Assembly: GCA_963704155.1 (NCBI GenBank) | Contig: CAVPHF010000041.1 | Coordinates: 16,457-80,456 of the forward strand | Direction of reading: 5' to 3' | Length of the DNA: 64,000 nucleotides | Source: an uncultured Gammaproteobacteria bacterium | GTDB taxonomy: Bacteria > Pseudomonadota > Gammaproteobacteria > Chromatiales > Chromatiaceae | Shown here: positions 1 through 22,175 of the stretch, piece after piece | Layout: each line of letters starts with the position of its first letter | Numbering within the stretch: position 1 is the stretch's first letter | The notes under the pieces: generated by a model | The model's input: the letters and a program-made list of their open reading frames with translations, nothing else | What the model was told of the DNA's origin: nothing | Database searches by the model: none | Translations under genes and position numbers: made by a program

Positions 1-99
1 CGGCCCGCATGAGCCCCTAGCGCGAGCGCCGTCGGGGCAAGGGCGCCGCGCCTATACCAGCGACCGAGAGCTGATTCATGAGAAGCTGAGGCTGGCCGA

Positions 100-1182
100 T
101 CAGGACTGGTCTTTCGCGGCGAATCCTTCAAGCTTGGCGAGACGCTCACGCAGTTCGGCGAGTTCGCGGGACTGGCGCTTGAAGGCTCCCAGCTGCTGCG
201 GCAACTTGGACAGGGCGGCCAACTCGCGCAGCGTGTCTTTGATGGCACGGGCAGGGGTGCCGAACACCGCGGCGCCAGCGGGGACGTCTTTAGTGACGCC
301 GGATTGACCGCCAATACGCGCGCCGGGACCAACCTTGACGTGGTCGGAGATAGCGACCTGTCCGGCGATCACAGCGCCGGCGCCGACGCTGCTGCTGCCA
401 GCGACACCCGCTTGACTGACCAGGATGACGTGCTCGCCGATGTCGGTGTTATGGGCAATCTGCACCAGGTTGTCGATCTTGGTGCCGCGGCGGATGCGCG
501 TCTCGCCGAGAGTCGCGCGGTCGACGCAGCAGTTGCAGCCGATATCGACGTCGTCCTCGATGACGACGCGGCCGAGCTGCGGGATCTTGCGGTGCGCGCT
601 GCCGTCCCAGCTGAAGCCGAAGCCGTCGCCGCCGACGACGCTGCCGGAGCGCACAATGCAGCGGTGGCCCAGAAGGCTGTCGCGCTGGATGGTGACGTTG
701 GCCTCGATCACGCAGTCATCGCCGAGCACGACACCGGCAGCAATGCTGCAGCCTGGACCAATGACGCAACGGGCGCCGACGCGAGCACCAGCCGCGATCA
801 CGGCGCAGGCGCCGACGGCAACCTCCTCGCCAAGCTCCGCGGCCGGGTCGATGACCGCACGCGGATGGATACCCTCAATGTCAGGCTGAGGCAGAAAGTG
901 CGCGGCAACCTGGAAGAATCCGATGCGCGGCTGCGCGATGCGGATCAGACAACGCAACGGCAAGTCCGGAAAGTCCGCCGGCACAATAACGGCGCCGGCG
1001 CGACTCGCCCGCACCGCGTCGGCCTGATCAGCGCCCTCGGCGAAACACAGATCAGTGGGTTCCGCCAGCTGCAGTGTATTGACGCCGCGGATCTGCACCG
1101 GCGGCTGTTGGTCGGCCACGGCCGGGAGCGGCGTCCGCAACAGAGCGCAAAGTTGCGAGAGATCGAGGACGACGGCGCTCAA
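100..1182 (-). CDS. lpxD: UDP-3-O-acylglucosamine N-acyltransferase (LpxD)
   Basis: 360-aa ORF with left-handed beta-helix hexapeptide repeats (e.g. [32 protein letters not shown]) and an LpxD-like N-terminal domain and C-terminal helical tail. The start is a TTG overlapping the dnaJ stop (TTGA, 1179-1182). Confidence 0.85.
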
Positions 1183-2312
1183 AGCCCCATCTTCTCGAAA
1201 AAGCTCTTGACACCGTCGAGCCAGCTGCTCGAGTGCGGGCTATGGTGCTTACCGCCGGCGGATACGCTCTCATCGAACTCGCGCAGGATGTCTTTCTGGC
1301 GCTCGGTCAGATTGACCGGCGTCTCCACGAGCACACGGCAGATCAGGTCGCCGACCGGGCCGCCTCGCACTGGTTTCACGCCCTTGCCGCGCATGCGGAA
1401 CATCTTGCCGGTTTGCGTGCCCCCAGGGACCTTCAGCATGACTTTGCCGCTCAAGGTCGGCACCGCCATCTCGCCGCCGAGCGCGGCGGTGACGAAGCTG
1501 ATCGGCACCTCGCAGAACAGGTTGTTCTCTTCGCGGGTGAAGATGGGGTGCGGCTGGACGCCAATCTGCACGTAGAGGTCGCCGGGTGAGCCGCCCTGCT
1601 CACCGGCCTCGCCCTCACCGGACAGGCGGATACGGTCACCAGTGTCGACGCCCGGCGGCACCTTGACCGACAGCGTCTTCTCCTCGCGCAAGCGCCCTGC
1701 CCCGCGGCAGTGGCCACAGCTCTCCTCGATCACCTTGCCCGTGCCGCGGCACTGCGGACAGCTCTGCTGGATGGAGAAAAACCCCTGCTGCATGCGCACC
1801 TGACCGGCACCATGGCAAGTCGGGCACTCCTTGGGCTTGGTGCCGGGCTTGGCGCCGCTACCGCCGCAGTGATGGCACTCCACGGTCGTCGGGATGCGGA
1901 TCTTGACGTCCTTACCGGCGACCGCGTCCTCGAGCGTCAGCGACAGGTCATAGCGCAGGTCGGCGCCGCGATGGGTTCGCCGGCCGCCGCCCCGCCCGCC
2001 GAAGATATCGCCGAAGACGTCACCGAAGATGTCGGAGAAGCCGCCGGCGCCGAAATCTGCCGAGCCACCGCCGAAGCCACCCTGACCACTGACGCCGGCA
2101 TGTCCGAACTGATCATAGGCGGAGCGCTTGCGGGCGTCGGACAGCACATCATGCGCCTCTTTGGCCTCCTTGAACTTGGCAAGGGCTTCAGCATCGTTGG
2201 GGTTGCGGTCGGGATGGTGCTTCATCGCCAGCCGCCGAAACGACTTCTTGATGTCCTGCTCACTGGCGTTGCGGCCGACACCGAGGACTTCGTAGTAATC
2301 GCGTTGGGACAT
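1179..2312 (-). CDS. dnaJ: Co-chaperone DnaJ
   Basis: J-domain with HPD (KHHPDRNP), a Gly/Phe-rich linker and four CxxCxGxG zinc-finger repeats ([32 protein letters not shown]). ATG at 2312. Confidence 0.97.
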
Positions 2313-2655
2313 GGGTGTCTATTGCGGACAGTCAGCGAGTATCGGGCTTTAGGACGCGATCTCGTCCGATCGCGCCTTGGGCGCCGCCCGCGGGCTCAAG
2401 AAAAACGGAGATCCGTTCAGGACAGCCAGGCACCGGCGGCGGCTAAGTCATCGCCGCCGGCGAGCTGTCCGCGGCGTCTCGGCTCAACGCTTCGGCGCCG
2501 GACGATGCCTGCGCCCTGCTGAGGTCGGAACCGTTGCGATCGCGCGCAAGAGTCAGGACAAGCCCGCTGAGCCGATCGCGCGGCAAGCGCGAGCAGCAAG
2601 GCTGCACTGGGCTTGAAGCCGATCAGCGAGCGCCCCCCGCGCATGCTCCACGCGA

Positions 2656-4614
<1,959 letters not shown>

Positions 4615-4710
4615 GATATTTCTCCACTGCAAATTCGTTAGTAAACCGATAACAGGCTCGCGCGTGCGGCCCTGGACCGACCCTGCCCCAGCCTGACCAA
4701 ATTGGTCGAG

Positions 4711-4739
4711 ACGTGGGGCAAAACCTTGTGATTCTCAAG
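4711..4739 (-). promoter_or_regulatory. Sigma32 (RpoH)-type heat-shock promoter upstream of dnaK
   Basis: Minus strand reads CTTGAGA (4739-4733), a 14-nt spacer, then CCCCACGT (4718-4711). The E. coli sigma32 consensus is CTTGAAA-N13-14-CCCCATNT. It lies about 97-125 nt upstream of the dnaK ATG. Confidence 0.6.
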
Positions 4740-4850
4740 CCTACTGCCGACCCAGAAACGGAAAACCGGCCGTCGCGCCGCCGCGGACAGGGCGCGCGGC
4801 CGGCGTTGCCCGACCGAAGCACGCGCCGCGCGCAGCCCGGTCACGCCGCG

Positions 4851-5510
4851 CTAAGCCGATTTCGAAACCATCACCATCGCCGGGCGCACCAGGCGACCGT
4901 TCAGAAGGTAGCCGCTCTGAATCACCGCGGTGACGGTGTTCGGCGGCAGATCAGCACGCGGCTGAATCGACATGGCCTGATGGTATTCCGGGTTGAACGG
5001 CTCGCCCTCGGGGTACACGCGCTCGACGCCAAATTTGGCCATGACATCGCCGAGCTGCTTCAGTGTCAGCTCGGTCCCCTCAAGCAGCCTGGCGACGTCC
5101 GCGTCGGGCTCACGCGCGGCGGCGAATCCAAGCTCCAGGCTGTCGCGCACCAACAGCAATTCTTTGACAAACCCCTCCAGCGCGAACTTGTGCGCGTTCT
5201 CCAGCTCCTTCGCCTGGCGCCGTTTCATGTTCTCCATCTCGGCACGCGTGCGCAGCAGCTGGTCGTGCGTCTGATCGGCCTTGGCACGAGCGTCCTCGAG
5301 CAACATGGTCAGCTCGGACGCATCGCCAGCAGCGGGGGGGTCATCGGCGGCCGGCCGCTGCGCCTGTGCGGCGTCCTCGCCCGATATCGCATCGGCCCGG
5401 TGGTCGGCCCAAGCACCGGGCTGGGCGTCATCCGCGGCCGAATTCCAGGCATCTGGCGCATCACCCGGACGCACCTCGCCTTGTTCCTGCTGGTGTGGAT
5501 CCTTTGTCAT
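4851..5510 (-). CDS. grpE: Nucleotide exchange factor GrpE
   Basis: 219-aa ORF with an acidic/Ala-rich N-terminus, a long helix (LLRTRAEMENMKRR) and a GrpE C-terminal beta domain (GYLLNGRLVRPAMV). It sits between hrcA and dnaK. Confidence 0.93.
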   Translation of the reverse strand: MTKDPHQQEQGEVRPGDAPDAWNSAADDAQPGAWADHRADAISGEDAAQAQRPAADDPPAAGDASELTMLLEDARAKADQTHDQLLRTRAEMENMKRRQAKELENAHKFALEGFVKELLLVRDSLELGFAAAREPDADVARLLEGTELTLKQLGDVMAKFGVERVYPEGEPFNPEYHQAMSIQPRADLPPNTVTAVIQSGYLLNGRLVRPAMVMVSKSA

Positions 5511-13568: not shown

Positions 13569-14369
13569 CTAGTGGGCTCGCGGCGCCTTTGTCCGGCTTG
13601 CGCTCGCCAGGGCAAAGCCGAGCAGTATCGAGACGAAGGTCGGGCCGAAAGGCTGGTCGAGCAGCAATGCCGCCGCGAAGCCCAGCAGGTAGCCCAGCAG
13701 GCCTATCGCGGCGGACAAGAGCAGCGTCCAGCGCCAGCCGGTCGCGATGCGAAATGCGATCCAAGCAGGCACCAGCACCAACGCGAAGGCGGCCATCAGC
13801 CCGATGCTGGCGGTTGCGACGGCCATGCCGGTTGCCGCGAGCAGGTCGAAACCCAGGTGCCAGCGTCGCGACGGCAATCGGTTGGCCAGCTCGTGCTGCG
13901 GCAGGAGGCGTGCGCGCAGCAGTCGCGGCGTTAGCCAGGGCAGCGCCAGGGCGCAGAGCAGCACCAGGAAGACGGCGGCGCCAAGATCCATTGGACCGGC
14001 GAAATAGAGCTGCCCCTCGACCAGCGCTTGCCCCAACTGCTCGCCATGTCCGGAGTTGGCAGCGACAAGCATTAGCACCGCCCAGCCACCGAGGATCATG
14101 AAGCCGAAGGCGGTATTGCCGCTGACCATGCCAAAGCCCTTGGCGAAGGCGCCGCCGCCAGCGGCGACGAGCCCGCCGAAGAGCACGGGCAGCCCGATCG
14201 AAAGCCCCAGCAGCGCACCGGCTGCGGCCAGGTGCGCAAAGCCGAGCGCCGCAAGCCATTCGTCCCTGAGCATCAAGAGCGCGCCCAGCACGGGCAAGAC
14301 ACAGGCCAGCAACAGGCCCACCGCAAGCGGCAGGCGGAAGATCGGATCAGTGAGCGCGGTCAGGTCCAT
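13569..14369 (-). CDS. Metal ABC transporter permease (ABC-3/ZnuB-like)
   Basis: 266-aa polytopic membrane protein with ZnuB/TroCD-like hydrophobic architecture. It is the last gene of the SBP-ATPase-permease array and overlaps the ATPase stop. Confidence 0.8.
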   Translation of the reverse strand: MDLTALTDPIFRLPLAVGLLLACVLPVLGALLMLRDEWLAALGFAHLAAAGALLGLSIGLPVLFGGLVAAGGGAFAKGFGMVSGNTAFGFMILGGWAVLMLVAANSGHGEQLGQALVEGQLYFAGPMDLGAAVFLVLLCALALPWLTPRLLRARLLPQHELANRLPSRRWHLGFDLLAATGMAVATASIGLMAAFALVLVPAWIAFRIATGWRWTLLLSAAIGLLGYLLGFAAALLLDQPFGPTFVSILLGFALASASRTKAPRAH

Positions 14370-14991
14370 CGGCGGCAGCCAAGGTTGCGAGCGCCCCGTC
14401 GTGATCCGAGCTCGTGGAGAGCTCCAACACGCGCGTGCAATGGGCGTCGAGGAAGGCCCGTTCGTGACTCACCAGCAGCACGGCGCGGTCCGCGGCGCGC
14501 GCCGCAAGCATCTGCGCGAGCAGGGCCATGTGGGTCGGGTCCAAATTGTTGGTGGGCTCGTCCAGCAGCACCAGCCGGCCAGGCCCGGCCAACGCCGCCC
14601 AGACGCACAGCAACTGGTGCTGCCCCCCGCTCAGGCGGTCGAGCCGCTGCGGCAGGAGCCGCACCAGGGTCTCGGGCAAAGCGCCAGCGTCAGCATGGGC
14701 GCTCGGATCGGCACCGGCGATGGCGAGCAGCTCCCTGCCGGTGACCGGCAAGGGTGCGAAACGCACCGGTGCCTGCGGCTGCACCGCCAGCTCGATGCCG
14801 GGCGCCAAGTCTATGCTTCCGCCGAAACAGCGCGCCTGCCCGGCGACGGCCGCGAGCAGCGTCGACTTGCCGCTGCCGTTGGCCCCCCAAAACCCGACGA
14901 TGTCGCCCGCCGATACCCGCAGCGACACCGGCCCCACCACCGGCTGCGACCAGCCGGCAACGAGGCCGTTCAGGGACAACAACGGGGTCAA
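14347..14991 (-). CDS. Metal ABC transporter ATP-binding protein (ZnuC-like)
   Basis: Walker A GANGSGKST, signature LSGGQHQLL and Walker B LVLLDEPTNNLD. The track ORF (to 15699) is an over-extension through the SBP gene. No in-frame ATG fits; a TTG at 14991, 14982 or 14979 is plausible, so the start is uncertain. Confidence 0.8.
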   Translation of the reverse strand: MTPLLSLNGLVAGWSQPVVGPVSLRVSAGDIVGFWGANGSGKSTLLAAVAGQARCFGGSIDLAPGIELAVQPQAPVRFAPLPVTGRELLAIAGADPSAHADAGALPETLVRLLPQRLDRLSGGQHQLLCVWAALAGPGRLVLLDEPTNNLDPTHMALLAQMLAARAADRAVLLVSHERAFLDAHCTRVLELSTSSDHDGALATLAAADGPDRAH

Positions 14992-15019
14992 TAGCGCGGC
15001 CGTTAGCGGCGGTTCGGCT

Positions 15020-15895
15020 TCAGTCGGCGCTGGCAACGGCGCTGACCCAGCGGTCGATGTGGCGCAAATAGCCGTTGCCGTCGGCATCCACCGGCGGCTC
15101 CAGTGGGAGCTCACGAACCGGCCACCCCAGCTCCCGGCCCAGCTTGCGCGGCCCCTTCGGCGATTGATAGGGCGCGTAGACAATGACACCTTCGCGCCCC
15201 CGCAGCTTGCCGGCCAAGTTCCGCAGAGCGCGCCCGCTCGGCGGCACCCCGGGCACCGGCTCGATGGTGCCGAGCAGCGGTACGTCGAAGCGCTCCAGCA
15301 GGTAGATGGCGTCGCGGTGGTAAAGCACCACGCCCGGTGCTTCCGCGAGTCGGGCCTGCCAATCCGGAACGCGACGCTCGACGGCAGCGGCGAAGCGCTC
15401 CGCGTTGCGGCGATAGGCGGTTGCATTGGCCGGGTCCAGCAGAGCCATCCGCCCGCCCAAGGTCTCCGCGACCTGCGCCATGCGCACGGGGTCCAGATCC
15501 ACGTGCGGATTACCCGCCGGGTGCACATCACCCTGGGCGCGGTCCGCCGCGCCGCCGACGTCCAGCAGCGGCACCTGCGCCGCCGCCTCGAAGTAGCCCT
15601 CGCGCCCGGGGAGGATGTCGGGGTTCGCGGAGCTTGAGCTCGCCGCCGGCAACCAGCCCACCTCCAGCTCGGCACCCACGGCGACCACCAGGTCGGCACC
15701 GCGCAGCGCGCGGATCATGCTCGGCTTGGCCTGCAACATATGCAGATCCTGCTCCGGCCCGGAAAGCACCGTGAGATCGGCTTCAGGCGCCACGGCGCGC
15801 ACCAGGGCGCCCATGCTCGTGCTGGTGGCGACCACGTCGAGCGCCAGCGCGGGGCCTGCGAGCACCGCGAGCAGGCCAAACAACCATCGTCTCAT
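15020..15895 (-). CDS. Metal ABC transporter substrate-binding protein (ZnuA/TroA-like)
   Basis: Signal peptide MRRWLFGLLAVLAGPALA, with the ATG at 15895 preceded by AGGAG. Cluster-9 SBP-like motifs are present (DLHMLQAKPS, GDVHPAGNPHVDLDP). Unlike many ZnuA proteins, there is no His-rich loop. Confidence 0.8.
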   Translation of the reverse strand: MRRWLFGLLAVLAGPALALDVVATSTSMGALVRAVAPEADLTVLSGPEQDLHMLQAKPSMIRALRGADLVVAVGAELEVGWLPAASSSSANPDILPGREGYFEAAAQVPLLDVGGAADRAQGDVHPAGNPHVDLDPVRMAQVAETLGGRMALLDPANATAYRRNAERFAAAVERRVPDWQARLAEAPGVVLYHRDAIYLLERFDVPLLGTIEPVPGVPPSGRALRNLAGKLRGREGVIVYAPYQSPKGPRKLGRELGWPVRELPLEPPVDADGNGYLRHIDRWVSAVASAD

Positions 15896-15938
15896 GCCGT
15901 TGCTCCTTCTGAGTTTGGGTTTGGACATGCGGTGCACC

Positions 15939-17678
15939 TCAGAACTTATGGGCGCCATGGCTGCCCAGGCTCATCAGGAACTGCATGTAGAAGGCGTTGA
16001 AGCGCTCGCGCTCGTCCTCCGTCACCAGGATGTCGTTATAGGCGTACTGGGCGCGCAGCTTCGAGAATTCGGACAGGGTCCAGGTGATGTCCGCCGTCCA
16101 GCGGTCCGAGCTGCCGAAACCCTCGTTGACCGCACCGGTGACCTTGTTGGTCAGGCCCAGCACGTCGTAGCGCAGTCCGGCCTTCCACTTCGGCAGGAAG
16201 CCGTAGGTCGCCTGGGCGTAGAGGCCGTCGGTGGTGTAGTTCCGGCTGCTGCCGATCTGCTCCGGATGGGCACTGGAGCGCACCTTCATGTATGAGAGGG
16301 AGCGCAGGTATTCGGCTTGGAAGGTGATATCGCCCTGCCCGTGGGCCCCGGCGCCGTCGTACTTGTAGACGAGGTCGAGCCCCCAGAGGTCTGCATTGCC
16401 GGCAAGTCCCGTCTCGTGCAGCTCTTCGGTGATGCCGTTGCCGTGGGCGTGCATATGGTCGTGGTCCGCGTCCTCATGCTCGTGATCCTCGTCGTGGGCG
16501 TGTCCTTCGTCGTGCTCATGGTCATGCCCGTGATCCGCCTCGTGCGCATGATCCTCTTCATGCGCATGCCCATGCTCATCTTCGTGCCCATGGTCATCTT
16601 CATGCTCGTGCGCCATCGCATGGGTATGCGTGCGTACCGCTTGCTGCTGATCCGCATGCGCGTAGGACACGCCAAACTGGAGCGCGTGCTTGCGACCGAG
16701 GTCCGGCGCGACCTTGGCGAATGCAGTGAAGAGTCGGGGGCCGTCCTGGGTCTGGCCGAGGTTCAGCGCCTCCTGCTCGGCGTCGCCGACGGTGGCGCCG
16801 AAGATCTCCTGGTTGCCCTGCAACGCCTCGCCGCCGATGAGGGCGTAGAAGGGCAGGTCGTCCGGCACCCAGGTGAGCTGCAAGCCCGTGTCCTGCAGGC
16901 CATGGAAGCCGAGGAGGTTCAGGTACGGCAGGTTCTGGTCTACGAAGTCCCACTGGTGCGGGTGCTGATCGTTGACGTAGCCGAAGCCACTGAGGAACTT
17001 ACCCCCCTTTACTTTGAGACCGTACGGGAGCGACCGGGTCTCGAAGTAGGCCTCCTCGAGGGTGACGTCGCCGTCGCCACTGACGGTGACATAGGTCGCC
17101 GCATCGAAGTACGGGTCAACGGTCGCGCTGAAATAGAACTCGGCCGAGCGTAGGTTGAACCCCGGCTCTGCCACGGCATGCGCATGGCCGCCATCGCCAT
17201 GATCGTGCGCATCGCCCCCCTCGCCATGATCATGGGCGAGGCTGCGCCCTGGCCAGAATGCCTCGCCCACCAGCGCGGCGCCATCACCTTCCGAAGTGTC
17301 GTCCTGGTAGTAGTTGCCGTCCAGGATCACCGAGATCTGTGGATTGAAGGCGCTGCCGGAGGTGACGGCGTCGAACACCCCGCCGCGCTTGGTCGCCGAG
17401 CCCGCGCCAGCGCTCGCCTGGCCTTGCGACCGCAACACCCGCGGCGCGGTCATCGGCAGCGACAGCGCATCGGCACCGGCCGCCTGGCGCGCGACCCGGG
17501 CGGTCTGCTCGGCGTCGGACAGGCGCGACTCCAGCGCCTGGATACGGTCTTCATATTGGCTGCGCATGGCCTCGAGTTCCGCGCGCAACGCGTCGATGTC
17601 GGCGTCGCCGGCGGCAGCCGCGGCGACCGGGGACAGTAGGGCACCCAGAAAGGCGCCCGGCAACAGTGATTGGTTCAT
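15939..17678 (-). CDS. Outer-membrane beta-barrel protein with an N-terminal coiled coil and two His/Asp/Glu-rich insertions
   Basis: Signal peptide MNQSLLPGAFLGALLSPVAAAAAG (ATG 17678, GGAG upstream), then a coiled coil (IDALRAELEAMRSQYEDRIQALESRL). The remainder shows alternating beta-strand-like sequence ending in aromatic ...HGAHKF. His-rich inserts are encoded at nt 17178-17237 and 16440-16631. No TonB plug or TonB box was recognised. Confidence 0.7.
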   Translation of the reverse strand: MNQSLLPGAFLGALLSPVAAAAAGDADIDALRAELEAMRSQYEDRIQALESRLSDAEQTARVARQAAGADALSLPMTAPRVLRSQGQASAGAGSATKRGGVFDAVTSGSAFNPQISVILDGNYYQDDTSEGDGAALVGEAFWPGRSLAHDHGEGGDAHDHGDGGHAHAVAEPGFNLRSAEFYFSATVDPYFDAATYVTVSGDGDVTLEEAYFETRSLPYGLKVKGGKFLSGFGYVNDQHPHQWDFVDQNLPYLNLLGFHGLQDTGLQLTWVPDDLPFYALIGGEALQGNQEIFGATVGDAEQEALNLGQTQDGPRLFTAFAKVAPDLGRKHALQFGVSYAHADQQQAVRTHTHAMAHEHEDDHGHEDEHGHAHEEDHAHEADHGHDHEHDEGHAHDEDHEHEDADHDHMHAHGNGITEELHETGLAGNADLWGLDLVYKYDGAGAHGQGDITFQAEYLRSLSYMKVRSSAHPEQIGSSRNYTTDGLYAQATYGFLPKWKAGLRYDVLGLTNKVTGAVNEGFGSSDRWTADITWTLSEFSKLRAQYAYNDILVTEDERERFNAFYMQFLMSLGSHGAHKF

Positions 17679-17755
17679 TCGTGCACTCCGATAGACGAAC
17701 AGACGACGACCCGCGACCCTATGAGGTCGTCGGGCAACCAAGCCGTAGGCAGGGC

Positions 17756-18085
17756 TCAGTAACCGTCAGTTGGCGGCGGCGCACGCGCGCGATGCGCGTT
17801 GAAGATCGTTCGAAGTGGGGGGCGTGCGATTGCGAACAGTGGCAATCGGAGCGGGCCGAGGCAGTCCGTGAAATCGAGCACTGCCGTGTTGAGCACCGCA
17901 CCGAGCGGGGCACCGGCCAGGCAGATCTCGCACTGTTCCTCGTCCACATGCCCGAGGTGCTCGACGTCGTGGAGCCACAGCAGCGTCTGCGCCAGCACCA
18001 AGAGGCAGGCCAGAAGGAGGCACCCGGACGCCGCAAGACGGGAGTGGGAACTGGACGGGCGGGGCTGAGCAACACAGCGGGACAC
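17756..18085 (-). CDS. Small membrane-anchored His/Cys/acidic protein (DUF2946-like?), first gene of the putative Zur operon
   Basis: 109-aa GTG-start ORF with one predicted TM helix (LAASGCLLLACLLVLAQTLLWL). The helix is followed by HDVEHLGHVDEEQCEIC, a candidate metal-binding motif. Its position between the Zur-like box and the OM barrel gene supports it. The family assignment is tentative. Confidence 0.45.
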   Translation of the reverse strand: MSRCVAQPRPSSSHSRLAASGCLLLACLLVLAQTLLWLHDVEHLGHVDEEQCEICLAGAPLGAVLNTAVLDFTDCLGPLRLPLFAIARPPLRTIFNAHRARAPPPTDGY

Positions 18086-18120
18086 GAGTCGACCGAGACC
18101 TTGGGCAAGCTGTTTGGCAG

Positions 18121-18140
18121 AATGTTATATAATAACAAAC
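18121..18140. promoter_or_regulatory. Candidate Zur box
   Basis: AATGTTATATAATAACAAAC has the core TGTTATATAATAACA (18123-18137), with 6 of 7 arm positions self-complementary. It resembles the gammaproteobacterial Zur consensus GAAATGTTATANTATAACATTTC. It is the only strongly AT-rich patch locally and lies 38 nt upstream of the GTG at 18085. Confidence 0.6.
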
Positions 18141-18151
18141 GAAGGTGTTGC

Positions 18152-18430
18152 TTGTTGCAGATCAAATACAAACCGCGAAGCACGATACTGACGGTCTTCG
18201 GATTCTTCTTTATCTCCGGCTTTTGCGCCCTGCTGCTGCAGGTGGATGCGGGAGCTAGCGCTGCTCTTCGGCGCCACCGCTCAGGCCGCGGTAGCCACCC
18301 CGGCGGCCTTGGTTCTCGGCCTTGCCGTACGCCGCGCCCGCAGGGGACAGCGGAGTCGCCGCATCGCCCGGCCGCTCCAGGGCCATGCGCTGCGGGAAGC
18401 CGGCGTCCTGGTGGTATCGCTGGACTATTT
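18152..18430 (+). pseudogene. Frameshifted N-terminal remnant of a spermidine-synthase-like / fused-MFS membrane protein
   Basis: Frame 1 gives ...TVFGFFFISGFCALLLQV and a shifted frame continues WMRELALLFGATAQAAVATPAALVLGLA. Together they reproduce the FFxSGxxALxxQVxWxRxLxLxFGxT signature of that family's first two TM helices. The frame break is at about 18240-18246, and no recognisable continuation follows. Confidence 0.3.
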
Positions 18431-18999
18431 CCTTCTCGCAAAGGCCTCCGCGACCACAGACGGCGCGCTCTGCGACAAACGGGTATCGACCGAGCCAGGG
18501 CTGCTGGTGCTCGTCAAGCTGCTGCTCGTGCTGGTATTCTTGTCGCCGACGTCTCCTCCTTGGCTGCTTGGCTCGCGCGACGGAGATGGGCCCTCGTGCC
18601 AATGCCACCGTTGTCCCGATGGTATCGGTGCTGCTGTGCGCGTCAGCGCTGCTTGTAGCGGCGACACCACACGCCTTGGCTCGACGTATGGGCAGCTTGG
18701 ACTCCCTAAGCGCCCAGCGCTGGAAGCGCTGCGCGCCGAGCGGGACGAGGCGATGCAGCGTCGCACCGAGGGCCTGCCAGACGGCTGATTGAAGATCGCG
18801 CGGACTCGGCTTGACCGCACGCAACGCGATCTGCCGCGCCGGCGTCTATCCTTCCCAGGGCATTCATGGAATCCGCTCGGAATCGGCGGTGTCTTGCCGT
18901 CGTAACCCTCGACGGGGCGCCTTCCGAAGCGGCGCTGCCGATGCCAGCGGCCACCGCGTAGTGAATGCCCGAAACAAACATGCAAGCGGAGTGAGCCCA

Positions 19000-19359
19000 A
19001 TGACCGAGCCCTGCCAGACCCATCTAGATCACGACCACGAACACGGCCCCGGCTGCGGTCACCAGACCGTCCGCCATGGTGACCACCTCGACTACCTGCA
19101 TGACGGCCATTTGCACCACCCGCACGAGATGGATGGCAAGGTGCACTACGATGAGCACGTGATCGAGGTCAGCGAGACCAACCCCGACGGCTGCGAGCGG
19201 CGCATCGCCGACTGCCAAGCGAGCGGCCATGTGCACGGCCCAGACTGCGGGCACGAGGCCATCCCCCACGGAGACCACGTGGACTACATCGTTGGCGGGC
19301 GCCTGCATCATCCGCACGGCGACCATTGCGACGATCATGGTCCGGTGAGCCTGACCTGA
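19000..19359 (+). CDS. Small cytoplasmic His/Cys-rich protein with two histidine-triad-like repeats
   Basis: The ATG at 19000 (GGAG 9 nt upstream) gives 119 aa. It has two repeats, HGPGCGHQTVRHGDHLDYLHDGHLHHPH and HGPDCGHEAIPHGDHVDYIVGGRLHHPHGDHCDDHG. There is no signal peptide. The upstream part of the track ORF (18811-18999) is rejected. Confidence 0.65.
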   Translation: MTEPCQTHLDHDHEHGPGCGHQTVRHGDHLDYLHDGHLHHPHEMDGKVHYDEHVIEVSETNPDGCERRIADCQASGHVHGPDCGHEAIPHGDHVDYIVGGRLHHPHGDHCDDHGPVSLT

Positions 19360-19629: not shown

Positions 19630-19786
19630 TCGGATGAGAGAGCGAGTGCGCGACGCCGCCGAGGAAGCCGCCGCCATCGACAAACACATGCGTGAGAGAC
19701 GGATGCGCTAGGGCAATCGTGCTAACCAACGCCGGCAATACGGCAGCGGCCTGGCCGCTCGCGGCAGCCAGTGTCCGGCTGCTCAT
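19630..19786 (-). pseudogene. Truncated second HupE/UreJ-like gene (N-terminal ~52 codons only)
   Basis: The ORF starts with an ATGA overlap on the hupE stop (19783-19786). It encodes a signal-peptide-like segment plus ALAHPSLTHVFVDGGGFLGGVAHSLSHP, resembling the HupE N-terminus (AH...GFxxGxxHP). Similarity ends where the repeat-bearing region begins. Confidence 0.35.
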
Positions 19787-20433
19787 CCAGCGCCGAGCTG
19801 CCGAAACAAAAAATAGCCGCCCACCGCGGCAACCAGACCGCCGCCGACGCGGATCAGGCGGTCACCGGCGGGCCAGCGGTTGGCAGCGCCGATGACGATG
19901 CCGCACAGATGCAGCGCTCCGGTGGCGGCGACAAACCCACTCGCGTAGAGAATCGGAACGCCGAAATCCGGCAGCGCCGTGCCGTGGGCATGACCATGGA
20001 AGACGGCAAAGATTGCCACCAATGGCAGAGCGACCCAGAGCGGCGGCCGCACCTTGAACGCCACCATCAAGCCAAGCAGCAGACCCGACAGCGCAATCCC
20101 GGTTTCGACTTGCGGCAGTGCAAACCCGGTGACACCGAGCACGCCGCCGACCGCCATTATCAGTGGAAAGGCGATCGGCAGCAGCCAGATCGCCGGCGCA
20201 CCGAGCTGCGCGCCCCAGAGGCCGACCGCTACCATCGCGACGACATGGTCGATTCCGGAGACCGGGTGCAGCAGCCCGGAGACGAGTCCGCCATCGCCGG
20301 CGCGGCTGGACTCGACGTGGGCGGCAACGATCCGCGGCCAAAGCCACAGCAGGGCCGCGGCGAACAAGCCAATGGACCACCAGCGCGACTTCGGCAGCCG
20401 GCATCGCCGCCACTGTCGATCAACAAGACGCAT
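19783..20433 (-). CDS. hupE: HupE/UreJ family metal (Ni/Co-type) transporter
   Basis: Signal peptide ending ...IVAAHV, the signature GLVSGLLHPVSGIDHVVAMVAVGLW, and an internal FHGHAHG motif within 5-6 TM helices. Confidence 0.85.
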   Translation of the reverse strand: MRLVDRQWRRCRLPKSRWWSIGLFAAALLWLWPRIVAAHVESSRAGDGGLVSGLLHPVSGIDHVVAMVAVGLWGAQLGAPAIWLLPIAFPLIMAVGGVLGVTGFALPQVETGIALSGLLLGLMVAFKVRPPLWVALPLVAIFAVFHGHAHGTALPDFGVPILYASGFVAATGALHLCGIVIGAANRWPAGDRLIRVGGGLVAAVGGYFLFRQLGAG

Positions 20434-20445
20434 TCTGGACTGGCG

Positions 20446-21462
20446 TCAGAACAGCGCCGAAACGGTCAGGATCAGCCGGTAGCGTTCGGTTCCCTCGCCG
20501 CCCTGCTGCTCGTCCTGCTCGTTCAGATCCTTCCAGAGGACCGACTTGTAGCCCAGACCGACACTGACTCGATCCCAGTACAGACGCACACCTGGGAGCC
20601 CGTAGATCATGTCACCGCCGGTGGCCAGCTCGGATTCGCCATTGGTGCGGTCGCGCCCTAGATGCAGGTAGTGCGCCTCGATCGCCAGGTCGAGCCGCAA
20701 GCGGCGCTCGACGTTGGTGTAGAGACGGTAGACCAAGGAACTGTTTGCCCGCAGTTCTTCGCCGAACCGCGTCCGATTGCCGTCGGAGTAGCGATACTCT
20801 TGGAAGCCGATGTAGGACAACTCCTGATTGAAGGTGAGCTTGGTGCCGATCATCTTGGTCGCGGTCAGACCCAGTGCGTAGGCTGGATTGCCGAAGCCGG
20901 TCGACTTGCCAGGGTCGATCTCGCCGTTGCGGTCGCGCAGGTTCGGGTTGCCCGTCGGCAGTGAAAAGCCGCCGAATAGCGTGAAATGCCAGTCCTCCAG
21001 GTCGTCCAAACTTTCGTTCTCTGGGATCAGACGCAGCCCCTGGTCGTACTTGAAGCCGAACTGTCCGAAGAGATTGACGTCGGCAAAGCCATGGGTGTCG
21101 AAACCGCCGTCCTCGTCCACCTTGCTGTGATAGGGCAAAAAGACGTAACCGGACAGCCAGGACTGGAACCCGTACCCGATGCCGAGCATCCAGTAGTTGG
21201 CGTAATCGCTTTCCGGGTTTTTCGGGTCCGGATCGAAGGTCTTGTATTTGGCATGATCGAGCTTGGCGTAGAGCAATGTGCTGCCCTTTGGCAAGGTAGC
21301 CGAGGTCGCCATCTCGATGGGTGCACCGGGGCCTTCCAGCGCCGCCGCGCCGAGACCGGCCACGCCATGATGGGCAGCGGCCTTGCCGCTGCCGAGCGCC
21401 AGCAAGGCCAGCGCAATGATCCTCCGCCCGTTGCGTGCTCGGCCGAGTGCGCGGTTCCTCAT
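20446..21462 (-). CDS. Outer-membrane beta-barrel 'transporter' family protein (MetA-pathway-like OMP)
   Basis: Signal peptide (IIALALLALGSGKAAA), alternating amphipathic strands and a terminal ...LILTVSALF. ATGA overlap with the upstream DUF4198 gene. Confidence 0.7.
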   Translation of the reverse strand: MRNRALGRARNGRRIIALALLALGSGKAAAHHGVAGLGAAALEGPGAPIEMATSATLPKGSTLLYAKLDHAKYKTFDPDPKNPESDYANYWMLGIGYGFQSWLSGYVFLPYHSKVDEDGGFDTHGFADVNLFGQFGFKYDQGLRLIPENESLDDLEDWHFTLFGGFSLPTGNPNLRDRNGEIDPGKSTGFGNPAYALGLTATKMIGTKLTFNQELSYIGFQEYRYSDGNRTRFGEELRANSSLVYRLYTNVERRLRLDLAIEAHYLHLGRDRTNGESELATGGDMIYGLPGVRLYWDRVSVGLGYKSVLWKDLNEQDEQQGGEGTERYRLILTVSALF

Positions 21463-22175
21463 GGCTGGCGCCCTCTAGGCAGTTCGAAGATAAGGGCCGC
21501 GGAGCGCACCAGCTTGTCAGTGCCGGGCTCCGTGGAAGGCTCGTCGATACTGGCGGAGATGACCTGGGTGCCGCCGTGACGAAGACGGATGTTGATCCGC
21601 CCATCGCGGCCCGTCATGCCACGTGTACTGCCGTCGTAGGCGACTGCGACACCCTCACGCGGTTGCCTCTTCCAGGTCACCTGCAGGCGCAGCTTATCGC
21701 CGGGGTGAAGTCGCCGCGGATCATCGCGGCTGACCAATTCCAGCCCGTCAGACAGCGGACGCTCCAGCGCCGGCATCCAGGTTTCGATCAGCTTCACGCC
21801 CTCGATTGCCTGCCAGCTCCGAAGCGCACCCTTGACCTCGTTGCGCGGCTGGTTCTTCGTGCCGAGCAGGGTCTGCGTCCAATGCCCGGAGTCGGCCTCG
21901 ACCAGCACCGCCGCACATGGCCCGGAGATGCGCAGCGGATAAACCGCTTCGGGTGTCACGCGTTTGGTCCGGCCCGACGCGGTGACACAAAGGACACGCT
22001 GAACGATGGCGGAATCATAGGGTACGATCGCCTCGCCCTTGTGCTGCGAAAAGCGATGACCACGAAAGAGCAGATAATCCGAGCCGTCGGCCTCGAGCCA
22101 GTAGTCGTGCGCGGCGGCAGCCGAGGTGAGCAATAGTAGACCGACCGCAACGACGGATAGCAAAGGGCGTCTCAT
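21459..22175 (-). CDS. DUF4198 periplasmic metal-uptake-associated protein
   Basis: Signal peptide followed immediately by the family hallmark AHDYWLE, then a beta-rich body with a C-terminal Ig-like segment (GDKLRLQVTWKRQPREGVAV). Confidence 0.75.
   Translation of the reverse strand: MRRPLLSVVAVGLLLLTSAAAAHDYWLEADGSDYLLFRGHRFSQHKGEAIVPYDSAIVQRVLCVTASGRTKRVTPEAVYPLRISGPCAAVLVEADSGHWTQTLLGTKNQPRNEVKGALRSWQAIEGVKLIETWMPALERPLSDGLELVSRDDPRRLHPGDKLRLQVTWKRQPREGVAVAYDGSTRGMTGRDGRINIRLRHGGTQVISASIDEPSTEPGTDKLVRSAALIFELPRGRQP

Follow-up and report, generated by a model that had tools for sequence, protein, structure and literature searches.

A stretch of 64,000 nucleotides (64 kb; hereafter, the window) from an uncultured gammaproteobacterium of the Chromatiaceae (contig CAVPHF010000041.1) carries five co-directional genes on its minus strand, and these raise the question of how zinc may enter a Gram-negative cell by a route whose outer-membrane step is not a TonB-dependent receptor. 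The genes encode, in order, a protein of 109 amino acids (aa), a 579-aa outer-membrane protein, a ZnuA-type substrate-binding protein (SBP), an ATPase and an ABC-3 permease. To our knowledge, the passage of zinc across the Gram-negative outer membrane has been established only for TonB-dependent receptors, and is otherwise put down to “non-specific porins”. We have compared the operon with 80 related loci, obtained by scanning one genome per species, and on balance we consider it probable that it is a zinc-starvation operon of a Thiohalocapsa-like member of the Chromatiaceae, in which control by Zur, a ribosome-arrest leader, a substrate-tuned porin and a ZnuABC-type importer would be combined.

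An earlier note on this DNA had proposed a complete route from the outer membrane to the cytoplasm, with the small His/Cys protein as one of its transport components. The pairing of the outer-membrane protein with the importer has been found conserved in every locus examined, but a place for the small protein in the transport machinery is not supported; it is more readily explained as a regulatory leader, as is set out below.

The outer-membrane protein: a predicted porin-type barrel without a plug

The 579-aa protein consists of a signal peptide, a coiled coil (residues ~25-66), a linker, a predicted 16-strand barrel (residues ~114-574) and the C-terminal segment GSHGAHKF, whose final phenylalanine is as in outer-membrane barrels. 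AlphaFold2 modelling of residues 101-579 with 85 diverse sequences has returned 16 strands at a predicted local distance difference test score (pLDDT) of 86.3 and a predicted TM-score of 0.83, with disorder confined to two His-rich segments; the full-length model, calculated with 39 close homologs, is unusable overall (pLDDT 55), but it contains a long helix at residues 25-66. A trimer like those of FapF and DcaP would fit this helix, which is seen in a monomer model, and the protein is probably a homotrimer that is held by the periplasmic coiled coil.

The best matches of the barrel model in a Foldseek search of the Protein Data Bank (PDB) are the 16-strand trimeric porins VhChiP, Vibrio OmpT, DcaP, OprO, Omp32, PhoE and OmpC (E 1e-12 to 1e-8; target-normalised TM-scores up to 0.68), and the 18-strand specific channels rank after them. 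Pfam and NCBIfam have no family for the protein; its only match in these libraries is a weak one, in which residues 13-96 align with the N-terminal coiled coil of FapF. Its relatives show weak and scattered matches to BBP2, Sugarporin_N, the PF00593 barrel and Porin_O_P, and a profile of the family, compared with the sequences of the PDB, has returned coiled-coil noise only.

The public names of the relatives (“TonB-dependent receptor”, “porin”, “phosphate-selective porin O and P”, “zinc-regulated TonB-dependent outer membrane receptor”) include two that would make the protein a receptor with active zinc uptake, as in ZnuD, and several observations lean the same way: these names recur in the NCBI and UniRef entries of the homologs, PF00593 is matched weakly by 8 of 39 and by 4 of 65 members, and in Geoalkalibacter (Desulfuromonadota; locus L084, positions 1-5000) the module directly follows a DUF3450-ExbB-ExbB-ExbD-TonB-TPR cluster on the same strand, with a Zur-like AATGTTATTACATAATAT between the two, a single case that may be coincidental. 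Against such a receptor, the Plug domain (PF07715) finds no match in the window protein or in 104 relatives (sets of 39 and 65), even with matches allowed up to E <= 1 and 0.01, the model has 16 strand elements instead of the 22 of TonB-dependent receptors, and no such receptor is found among the 50 best structural matches. The mature N-terminus starts with a coiled coil of ~40 residues and a low-complexity linker, and we have recognised no TonB box of the beta-strand type in it by reading the sequence, with no dedicated tool applied; there is also no space for a plug, because only ~470 residues follow the coiled coil, ~80 of which lie in disordered loops. We therefore regard a TonB-dependent receptor as very improbable here; the protein is, by its model, a plug-less porin-type barrel of 16 strands. 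In this respect the porin-like barrel with a coiled coil that the earlier note had described, with neither a plug nor a TonB box, is borne out by the model, the Foldseek matches and the profiles, and two of the features it had singled out for checking, the strand count and the plug, have come out as 16 and absent.

The known Zur-controlled receptors ZnuD, ZnuK, ZnuL and TdfH resemble the system as outer-membrane components of zinc uptake that are regulated through a Zur box and often have His-rich surface loops; they differ from it in their 22 strands, their plug and their dependence on TonB energy, where the window protein is predicted to be plug-less, with 16 strands. The domain order of signal peptide, coiled coil, linker and barrel is shared with DcaP of Acinetobacter baumannii, ScrY and FapF, which act on dicarboxylates, sucrose and amyloid subunits, respectively, and have neither a metal context nor His-rich loops; DcaP is eighth among the structural matches of the barrel model, and the FapF barrel has 12 strands, in comparison with the 16 that are predicted here.

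The closest functional analogue is the pair OprP/OprO of Pseudomonas aeruginosa, starvation-induced, substrate-specific trimeric porins of 16 strands that feed an SBP-dependent importer of the ATP-binding cassette (ABC) type. The likeness lies in the predicted strand number, in the structural match to OprO, which is among those with the highest query-normalised TM-score (0.50), and in the logic of a starvation-regulon porin that serves a high-affinity ABC importer. Should the protein be itself a phosphate or anion porin of this type, its position next to ZnuABC-type genes would be incidental; the OprO score, some UniRef names and the Porin_O_P matches (PF07396; 4 of 39 relatives, best E 2.5e-6, and 1 of 65) point in that direction. 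The window protein itself has no Porin_O_P match and no significant sequence match to OprP/OprO, the invariant residues of its presumed pore region are His and Glu/Asp, as for a cation, in place of the Arg/Lys ladder of the anion porins, and it differs further in its coiled coil, in its His-rich surface loops and in being encoded within the importer operon. Together with the importer linkage and the Zur boxes described below, this leaves an anion porin with hardly any credibility.

Conserved residues of the porin family

Searched with the window protein, a word-indexed database returns 603 proteins, and with a relative from Holophagales 988; a profile search has collected 459 clusters (at 50% identity) at E <= 1e-30 and 2128 at E <= 1e-10. 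The family is uncharacterised, has no Pfam model and is spread over several phyla. In the window protein, the two His/Asp/Glu insertions that had been noticed in the barrel are real and are located at residues ~148-167 and ~357-415, with 21 histidines among the 59 residues of the second. By standard porin topology, the His-rich segments would belong to extracellular loop 1 (L1; residues ~127-172) and loop 5 (L5; residues ~357-415). The His content of loop 1 is 10-13% family-wide, against 2-3% in the remaining barrel. The 59-residue insertion of loop 5 is limited to the Thiohalocapsa-like lineage, the median length elsewhere being 0-10 residues; as a family hallmark, the second insertion has been considered and set aside as lineage-specific. 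What the members share throughout the family is a loop 1 rich in His and, in loop 3 (L3), an invariant QHPHQWDF.

The latter motif occurs in the loop between strands 5 and 6, which measures 31-33 residues in almost every member (32 in the window protein), contains short helices and is probably the counterpart of the constriction loop L3. In those full-length relatives that are most distant (29-52% identity), the residues E180, E208, H239, H241, G265, G336, R503 and G572 are invariant, and H574 and H577 are nearly so (full-length numbering). H239 and H241 are the two histidines of the QHPHQWDF motif, while E180 belongs to strand 2 and E208 to strand 4, and in general porins strands 2 and 4 are the part of the barrel wall that faces L3; for this reason, we propose that the His-Pro-His of the loop and the two glutamates may form a His/Glu eyelet, an arrangement derived from the strand and loop assignment of the residues.

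As a separate observation, the linker of the Chromatiaceae members contains an invariant S-x-P-M-(T/S)-A-P at residues ~70-80 (17380-17480 of the window, minus strand), which might serve as a plug, for docking or for processing; the acidobacterial relatives lack both this motif and the coiled coil.

The importer and its linkage to the porin

The three genes after the porin gene had been read as a ZnuABC-like importer, and the matches of their products to PF01297, PF00005 and PF00950 support this. The best NCBIfam matches are AztC for the SBP and AztB for the permease, and AztA is second for the ATPase (E 5e-26); the scores are far under the equivalog cut-offs of AztABC and ZnuA (AztC 62.8 of 350 bits, AztA 91.5 of 220, AztB 19.3 of 280 and ZnuA 26.8 of 268), so that the importer proteins are placed in a subfamily of their own. 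They share the SBP, ATPase and ABC-3 permease families with AztABCD and ZnuABC; in contrast to AztABCD, there is no AztD here and the importer is always preceded by a porin gene, and the SBP does not have the long loop, rich in His, of proteobacterial ZnuA.

A ZnuA-type gene is located directly after the porin gene in all 78 loci with downstream sequence, and it is followed by the ATPase and permease genes wherever the contig allows. These loci come from Chromatiaceae, Competibacteraceae, Steroidobacteraceae, Achromatium, Thiodiazotropha, Thiohalomonas, Holophagales and Vicinamibacteria, and the gene order is identical in Geoalkalibacter and in Thermoanaerobaculia. Culturable carriers of the module are Thiocapsa roseopersicina, Thermochromatium tepidum, Marichromatium gracile and Thiohalocapsa halophila.

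The Zur-type box and the identity of the metal

The intergenic region upstream of the operon contains the palindrome AATGTTATATAATAACAAAC, with perfect arms of 6 bp (TGTTAT-ATA-ATAACA). Its presence there had been reported before and is confirmed, except that it ends 35 nt, and not 38 nt, before the GTG start codon of the first gene. The box is the sole match in the window at <=3 mismatches, with none in 100 dinucleotide shuffles; with a weight matrix that we have built from box-like sites upstream of the porin genes in related loci, it scores 27.8 bits and is the sole site of the window with at least 12 bits. The consensus of the upstream sites is AAATGTTATAATATAACATTT. At 16 of 19 positions, the box of the window is identical to the Zur box of znuK in Caulobacter crescentus (GATGTTATATCATAACAAT), which has been listed with a gene that is 41-fold derepressed in a zur mutant (PMC4176598).

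A recognisable box is found in 40 of the 69 related loci that have enough upstream sequence, and its position is conserved: in the operons with both the 109-aa type open reading frame (ORF) and a box, the box is located 400-590 nt upstream of the porin gene, before that ORF (16 of 16), and in the operons that lack the ORF it is located at most 230 nt from the porin start (24 of 24). The weight matrix has found 70 hits in the 55 kb that lie 0-750 nt upstream of porin genes and 17 in the other 1064 kb, an approximately 80-fold enrichment that is partly circular and inflated, as the matrix was trained on upstream sites; the scarcity of hits away from these regions nonetheless carries information. 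Among the 17 sites elsewhere, several have been examined, and they precede genes of the zinc regulon, i.e. two cobW/COG0523 GTPases, two DksA paralogs, ZrgA and DUF1826 (confirmed by Pfam), and another precedes a second znuA-like gene; families of the cobW, DksA-paralog, ZrgA and DUF1826 types form the classical predicted Zur regulon (PMC2770081). The palindrome thus behaves as a Zur box, because its position is conserved and because it is tied to known Zur-regulon genes in related genomes; the resemblance on which the earlier note had relied is in this way extended to conserved position and regulon association, and we infer that the palindrome is a Zur-type operator.

Four points weigh against this interpretation or limit it. 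Apart from the circularity of the matrix, no recognisable box is present in 29 of the 69 operons; a search with Escherichia coli Fur has found no Fur/Zur gene in the window; and a scan for sigma-70-like promoters has found none around the box. Fur-family genes are located within a few kb of four of the related operons.

If the box were that of another regulator of the Fur family, the operon could import Mn, Fe, Ni, Co or Cu, or its porin could be a general cation porin. Importers of cluster A-I also carry Mn or Fe, MntC is the second-best NCBIfam match of the SBP (E 1.3e-13), the characterised leaders with the DUF2946 domain, to which the 109-aa protein is compared below, sense copper, some of them being tied to HupE genes for Ni/Co, and a HupE/DUF4198 cluster is located 2 kb from the operon. 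Zinc is nevertheless favoured by the Zur-type consensus with its associated genes in relatives, and by the SBP, whose best PDB sequence matches are nearly all zinc binders (Synechocystis ZnuA, Lbp/Lmb, AztC, and ZnuA of E. coli and Salmonella). On reading its sequence against the ZnuA and PsaA motifs, the SBP also has histidines at what we take to be the three canonical ligand positions (in DLH, NPH and YHRD). On the basis of the regulon association and the relatives of the SBP, the substrate would be zinc, and we consider the assignment of the operon to a different divalent metal unlikely, though it is the strongest of the competing explanations.

Two sets of loci show additional boxes. In the Thiocapsa group (L022, L026, L028, L030, L033 and L059), two Zur-type boxes are located at approximately -470 to -506 and -59 to -68 from the porin start, and the ~400 nt between them contain no recognisable CxxC/RAPP leader. 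In a Competibacteraceae locus (L052, positions 170-2425), a Zur-type box of 30 bits is located between a regulator gene and the gene of a 502-aa protein; from reading the sequences, we take the regulator to be ArsR/SmtB-like and the 502-aa protein to be secreted, with HGDH-type motifs. The latter has no Pfam match, and it might be a periplasmic zinc chaperone similar to AztD.

The first gene: a probable arrest leader

The product of the first gene contains a hydrophobic segment at residues ~20-38, followed by H39-x3-H43, C52-x2-C55 and, close to its end, R101-A-P-P104. In an alignment of 26 homologs, C52, C55, R101, P103 and P104 are invariant; the conserved pattern consists of a nearly invariant Q, H-x3-H, the invariant C-x2-C, ~45 unconserved residues and R-[A/G/S]-P-P near the stop codon. 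The hydrophobic stretch is conserved as well, and its assignment as an export signal or transmembrane (TM) segment has been made by reading the sequence. The second cysteine is separated from the arginine by a spacing of 46 residues in the window, with values of 45-48 across 22 loci; counts made by hand give 47 for Geoalkalibacter and 48 for an acidobacterial genome. The ORF occurs in Acidobacteriota and Desulfuromonadota too, with its motifs kept.

The same arrangement is known from two leaders. CruR of Bordetella pertussis heads the bfrG operon, where arrest of the ribosome at RAPP prevents Rho-dependent termination and copper, bound through CxxC, relieves the arrest (PMC9426467), and CutF of Rhodobacter capsulatus stalls upon induction by copper during its export, which melts a stem-loop that hides cutO's ribosome-binding site (PMC9973294, 10.1101/2025.02.05.636593); as proteins, both can barely be detected, and they act in cis (PMC9426467, PMC9973294). 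In Bordetella Bp2923 (CruR), C93 and R139 are 46 residues apart, a CxxC-RAPP spacing that is conserved and that matters for function (PMC9426467); RAPP is an arrest motif that has been characterised structurally (PMC10951233). The 109-aa ORF shares with CruR and CutF the export signal, CxxC, RAPP and the first position in the operon, and with CruR in particular the 46-residue spacing and a next gene that encodes an outer-membrane uptake protein, as in the pair CruR-BfrG. It differs from them in its zinc context (Zur box and ZnuABC) in place of copper, in the additional H-x3-H before CxxC, which completes a His2Cys2 set, and in a next gene that encodes a porin and not a TonB-dependent transporter or an oxidase.

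By profile, 17 of the 26 homologs match PF11162 (DUF2946) at E <= 10, the best at 2.8e-5, always along the half of the profile that runs from CxxC to RAPP. The window protein reaches 16.2 bits (E 0.018) against a gathering threshold of 23.7, which tells against formal membership; judged from its profile scores, it is a divergent relative of DUF2946. The published surveys of DUF2946 gene context (PMC9426467, PMC9973294), in the parts available to us, list Cu and Ni/Co partners only, with no mention of ZnuABC, a porin or zinc, and our literature searches have turned up no account of either a DUF2946 leader linked to zinc or a Zur-regulated porin, rich in His, from this family. All leader homologs that we have found are unnamed or called “hypothetical”.

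Whether the product of this ORF acts as a protein or through its synthesis is best approached from its distribution. It is present in 49 of the 74 related loci with enough sequence, in each case directly in front of the porin gene, from which a spacer of 41-153 nt separates it, and it is absent from the other 25, which keep the porin and the importer. Since it is missing in about one third of the related operons, its function is more likely regulatory than structural; a structural role is further disfavoured by the fact that the length, but not the sequence, of the segment between the motifs is conserved, and by the position of the box, which lies before the ORF where the latter is present and near the porin gene where it is absent.

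The same observations bear on a second possibility, i.e. that the protein is a membrane-anchored periplasmic metallochaperone that passes zinc from the porin to the ZnuA-type protein. AztD-type chaperones are a precedent for accessory periplasmic zinc carriers, and a TM or signal segment, a His2Cys2 set of ligands and conservation beside the porin over three phyla would suit such a role. Its absence from a third of the operons, the ~45 unconserved residues whose number is nonetheless fixed, the cis-acting nature of CruR and CutF, with their scarcely detectable products, and an invariant RAPP, a known arrest motif, at the spacing of CruR (PMC9426467) are all difficult to reconcile with a metallochaperone, which we judge improbable. 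The 109-aa ORF is probably a regulatory, metal-sensing ribosome-arrest leader. The earlier assignment of the small His/Cys TM protein to the transport machinery is therefore not supported, given its export signal, its CxxC, its RAPP, its CruR-like spacing, its first position and its absence from 25 of 74 operons.

Concerning the extent of the leader, the public annotation gives a protein of 80 aa (P0399; 17756-17998), whose start, an internal GTG, truncates the hydrophobic export segment. For a homolog with 70% identity (P0400), the called length is 109 aa, and conservation of the protein sequence includes the N-terminal region; the 109-aa call is likelier for these two reasons.

The leader-porin spacer

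We have examined the spacer between the leader and the porin gene for a way in which arrest could be transmitted to the porin. In the Thiohalocapsa clade, the Shine-Dalgarno (SD) sequence of the porin gene lies inside the conserved GGAGUGCAC. The spacer is complementary to the R-A codons of RAPP (CGUGCGC with GUGCACG in the window); a related locus (L078) has a perfect complement of 8 nt (GCACUCCG), and in Geoalkalibacter the Pro-Pro codons, CCU CCU, are a perfect anti-SD sequence. In two minimum-free-energy folds, the RAPP codons or the sequence just before them pair with the segment between the SD sequence and the AUG.

Across the family, the SD sequence of the porin gene is predicted to pair with the footprint of the RAPP-stalled ribosome in 13 of 22 loci, the RAPP segment is within the best 10% of the segments compared in 10 of 22, and the natural codons pair better than synonymous variants (Fisher combined p ~1e-4, a significance that is overstated, the loci being related). 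In the window, the duplex has an energy of -17.3 kcal/mol, compared with a median of -12.0 for the other segments (rank 0.07). Other values for the window count against pairing or against Rho: on a longer fragment, the partition function gives the SD sequence a pairing probability of 0.02, the leader-porin spacer has a thermodynamically unremarkable fold (z-score -0.77), and the spacer is not rut-like in its composition (C 0.33, G 0.32). Sequestration of the SD sequence by the RAPP region thus appears to have family-wide support and is ambiguous for the window; either SD unmasking or Rho anti-termination could be the mechanism of the leader, and we keep both.

Proposed working of the module

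We suggest the following sequence of events for the probable zinc-starvation operon. Under sufficiency, zinc-bound Zur would sit on the palindrome and repress the promoter. When the operon is transcribed, the nascent chain of the leader would be exported via its N-terminal hydrophobic segment and the ribosome would arrest at R101-A-P-P104, with the His2Cys2 motif, 46 residues before the arrest point, having just emerged; the spacing of 45-48 residues approximately corresponds to the ribosomal tunnel plus the translocon, and would place the motif at the periplasmic face during arrest. The arrest would permit downstream expression, either because the SD sequence of the porin gene is freed from the RAPP-coding segment or because Rho is blocked, as in CruR. 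Once zinc is sufficient, H39, H43, C52 and C55 would bind the metal, the arrest would be released, and the porin and the importer would quickly be turned off; for an uptake operon, we favour this direction, which is that of CruR, where metal releases the arrest and the operon is switched off.

At the surface, the His/Asp/Glu-rich L1 and L5 would concentrate Zn2+, and the His-Pro-His of loop 3, facing the invariant glutamates of strands 2 and 4, would act as a cation-selective eyelet, through which zinc would diffuse inward along a gradient kept by the high-affinity ZnuA-type protein; the latter would hand it to the ABC-3 permease and the ATPase, so that a passive outer-membrane step would be followed by an ATP-driven step at the inner membrane. 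On this proposal, the porin would be zinc-selective and independent of TonB.

A more far-reaching version of this proposal is a two-sensor device that does without TonB, in which Zur reads cytoplasmic zinc at the promoter, the His2Cys2 arrest peptide, exported co-translationally, reads periplasmic zinc (what the porin directly delivers) and gates expression of the porin and ZnuABC by stalling at RAPP, and the porin is the first dedicated zinc-selective diffusion channel of a Gram-negative outer membrane, with a His-Pro-His/Glu eyelet and a family that has been mislabelled as TonB-dependent receptors; we put this version forward as a tentative possibility, with appreciably less confidence than the zinc-starvation operon as such. 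The nearest precedent for a porin with a zinc role is MspD of Mycobacterium smegmatis, which has an accessory role in zinc homeostasis and is proposed to carry zinc over an outer membrane toward ZnuABC (PMC13098993); MspD has the octameric MspA-type fold of the mycomembrane and is a paralog of a general porin, with no dedicated His-lined family.

If the porin family is what we propose, it is a testable candidate for the outer-membrane route of zinc, always located before a ZnuABC-type importer and often behind a Zur box, and its recognition would correct the systematic misnaming of homologs as “TonB-dependent receptor”. The leader, if correctly identified, would extend the arrest mechanism of CruR and CutF from copper to zinc, and would place a classical repressor and a nascent-peptide sensor on a single uptake operon. 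The invariant residues of HPH, CxxC and RAPP offer precise targets for mutagenesis. The novelty would lie in the combination of a metal-specific porin with a zinc-type arrest leader; the component kinds are already known, and the system is not categorically new.

Operon layout and neighbouring genes

The coordinates of the operon are collected in Table 1. The five genes, described previously as tightly spaced and on the same strand, are so, with a correction of the start of the SBP gene: the best start is the ATG at 15895, six bases after AGGAG and followed by a clear signal peptide, and the 312-aa ORF from 15958 is probably too long. Gaps of 77 nt, 43 nt and 28 nt separate the successive genes up to that of the ATPase, which overlaps the permease gene by 23 nt.

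Table 1. Features of the putative zinc-uptake operon, in coordinates of the 64-kb window.
Feature	Position	Strand	Details
Zur-box-like palindrome	18121..18140	.	In the 160-nt gap between the operon and the relic of a divergent gene
Leader ORF (probable)	17756..18085	-	GTG start, 109 aa, contains HDVEHLGHVDEEQCEIC
Leader-porin spacer	17679..17755	-	77 nt, carries the porin Shine-Dalgarno GGAG inside the clade-conserved GGAGTGCAC
Outer-membrane protein (predicted porin)	15939..17678	-	579 aa; signal peptide, coiled coil, linker, barrel
ZnuA/AztC-like periplasmic cluster A-I SBP	15020..15895	-	291 aa, PF01297 E 4e-36
ABC ATPase, AztA/ZnuC-like	14347..14991	-	TTG start, 214 aa, PF00005 ABC_tran E 2e-16
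ABC-3 permease, ZnuB/AztB-like	13569..14369	-	266 aa, PF00950 E 1.8e-12

A weak terminator-like hairpin is located 3' of the permease gene (13563-13542), and terminator-like matches are no more frequent than expected by chance. An Rfam scan of the window has returned no match, and hence no riboswitch or known leader RNA.

On the other side of the box, the plus strand carries a relic (18176-18500), frameshifted and truncated, of which only residues ~6-115 are kept, over two frames. Its intact homolog is a 914-aa protein that is encoded divergently from the operon in Thiohalocapsa halophila (L005, 788..3532), presumably a membrane protein and spermidine-synthase-like, as judged by eye. Since the relic is frameshifted and truncated, the Zur box is located in a divergent region whose partner gene is dead in this genome. 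Two ORFs have been weighed as additional partners of the operon and rejected, one on the plus strand (18246-18788), which is a frameshifted remnant of the unrelated 914-aa gene, and one on the minus strand (18255-18824).

Further upstream, at 19783-22175 on the minus strand, a putative second metal-uptake cluster encodes a DUF4198-like periplasmic protein (E 1.3e-7, just under the threshold), a 338-aa outer-membrane-like protein that has no Pfam match, and HupE/UreJ (E 1e-53); DUF4198 is the family of the Neisseria zinc-capture protein Zcp. Neither a Zur-type box of at least 6 bits nor a riboswitch has been found near this cluster. Between it and the operon, at ~19000-19359 on the plus strand, a very His-rich protein of 120 aa is encoded, which has no signal peptide and no Pfam or NCBIfam match; it contains two copies of HGDHxDYxxxGxLHHPH, in addition to GCGH/DCGH, and may be a cytoplasmic metal buffer or chaperone. 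Homologs of this protein are encoded within a few kb of the operon in three related loci (L001, L005 and L076), and a partial one is found in L052.

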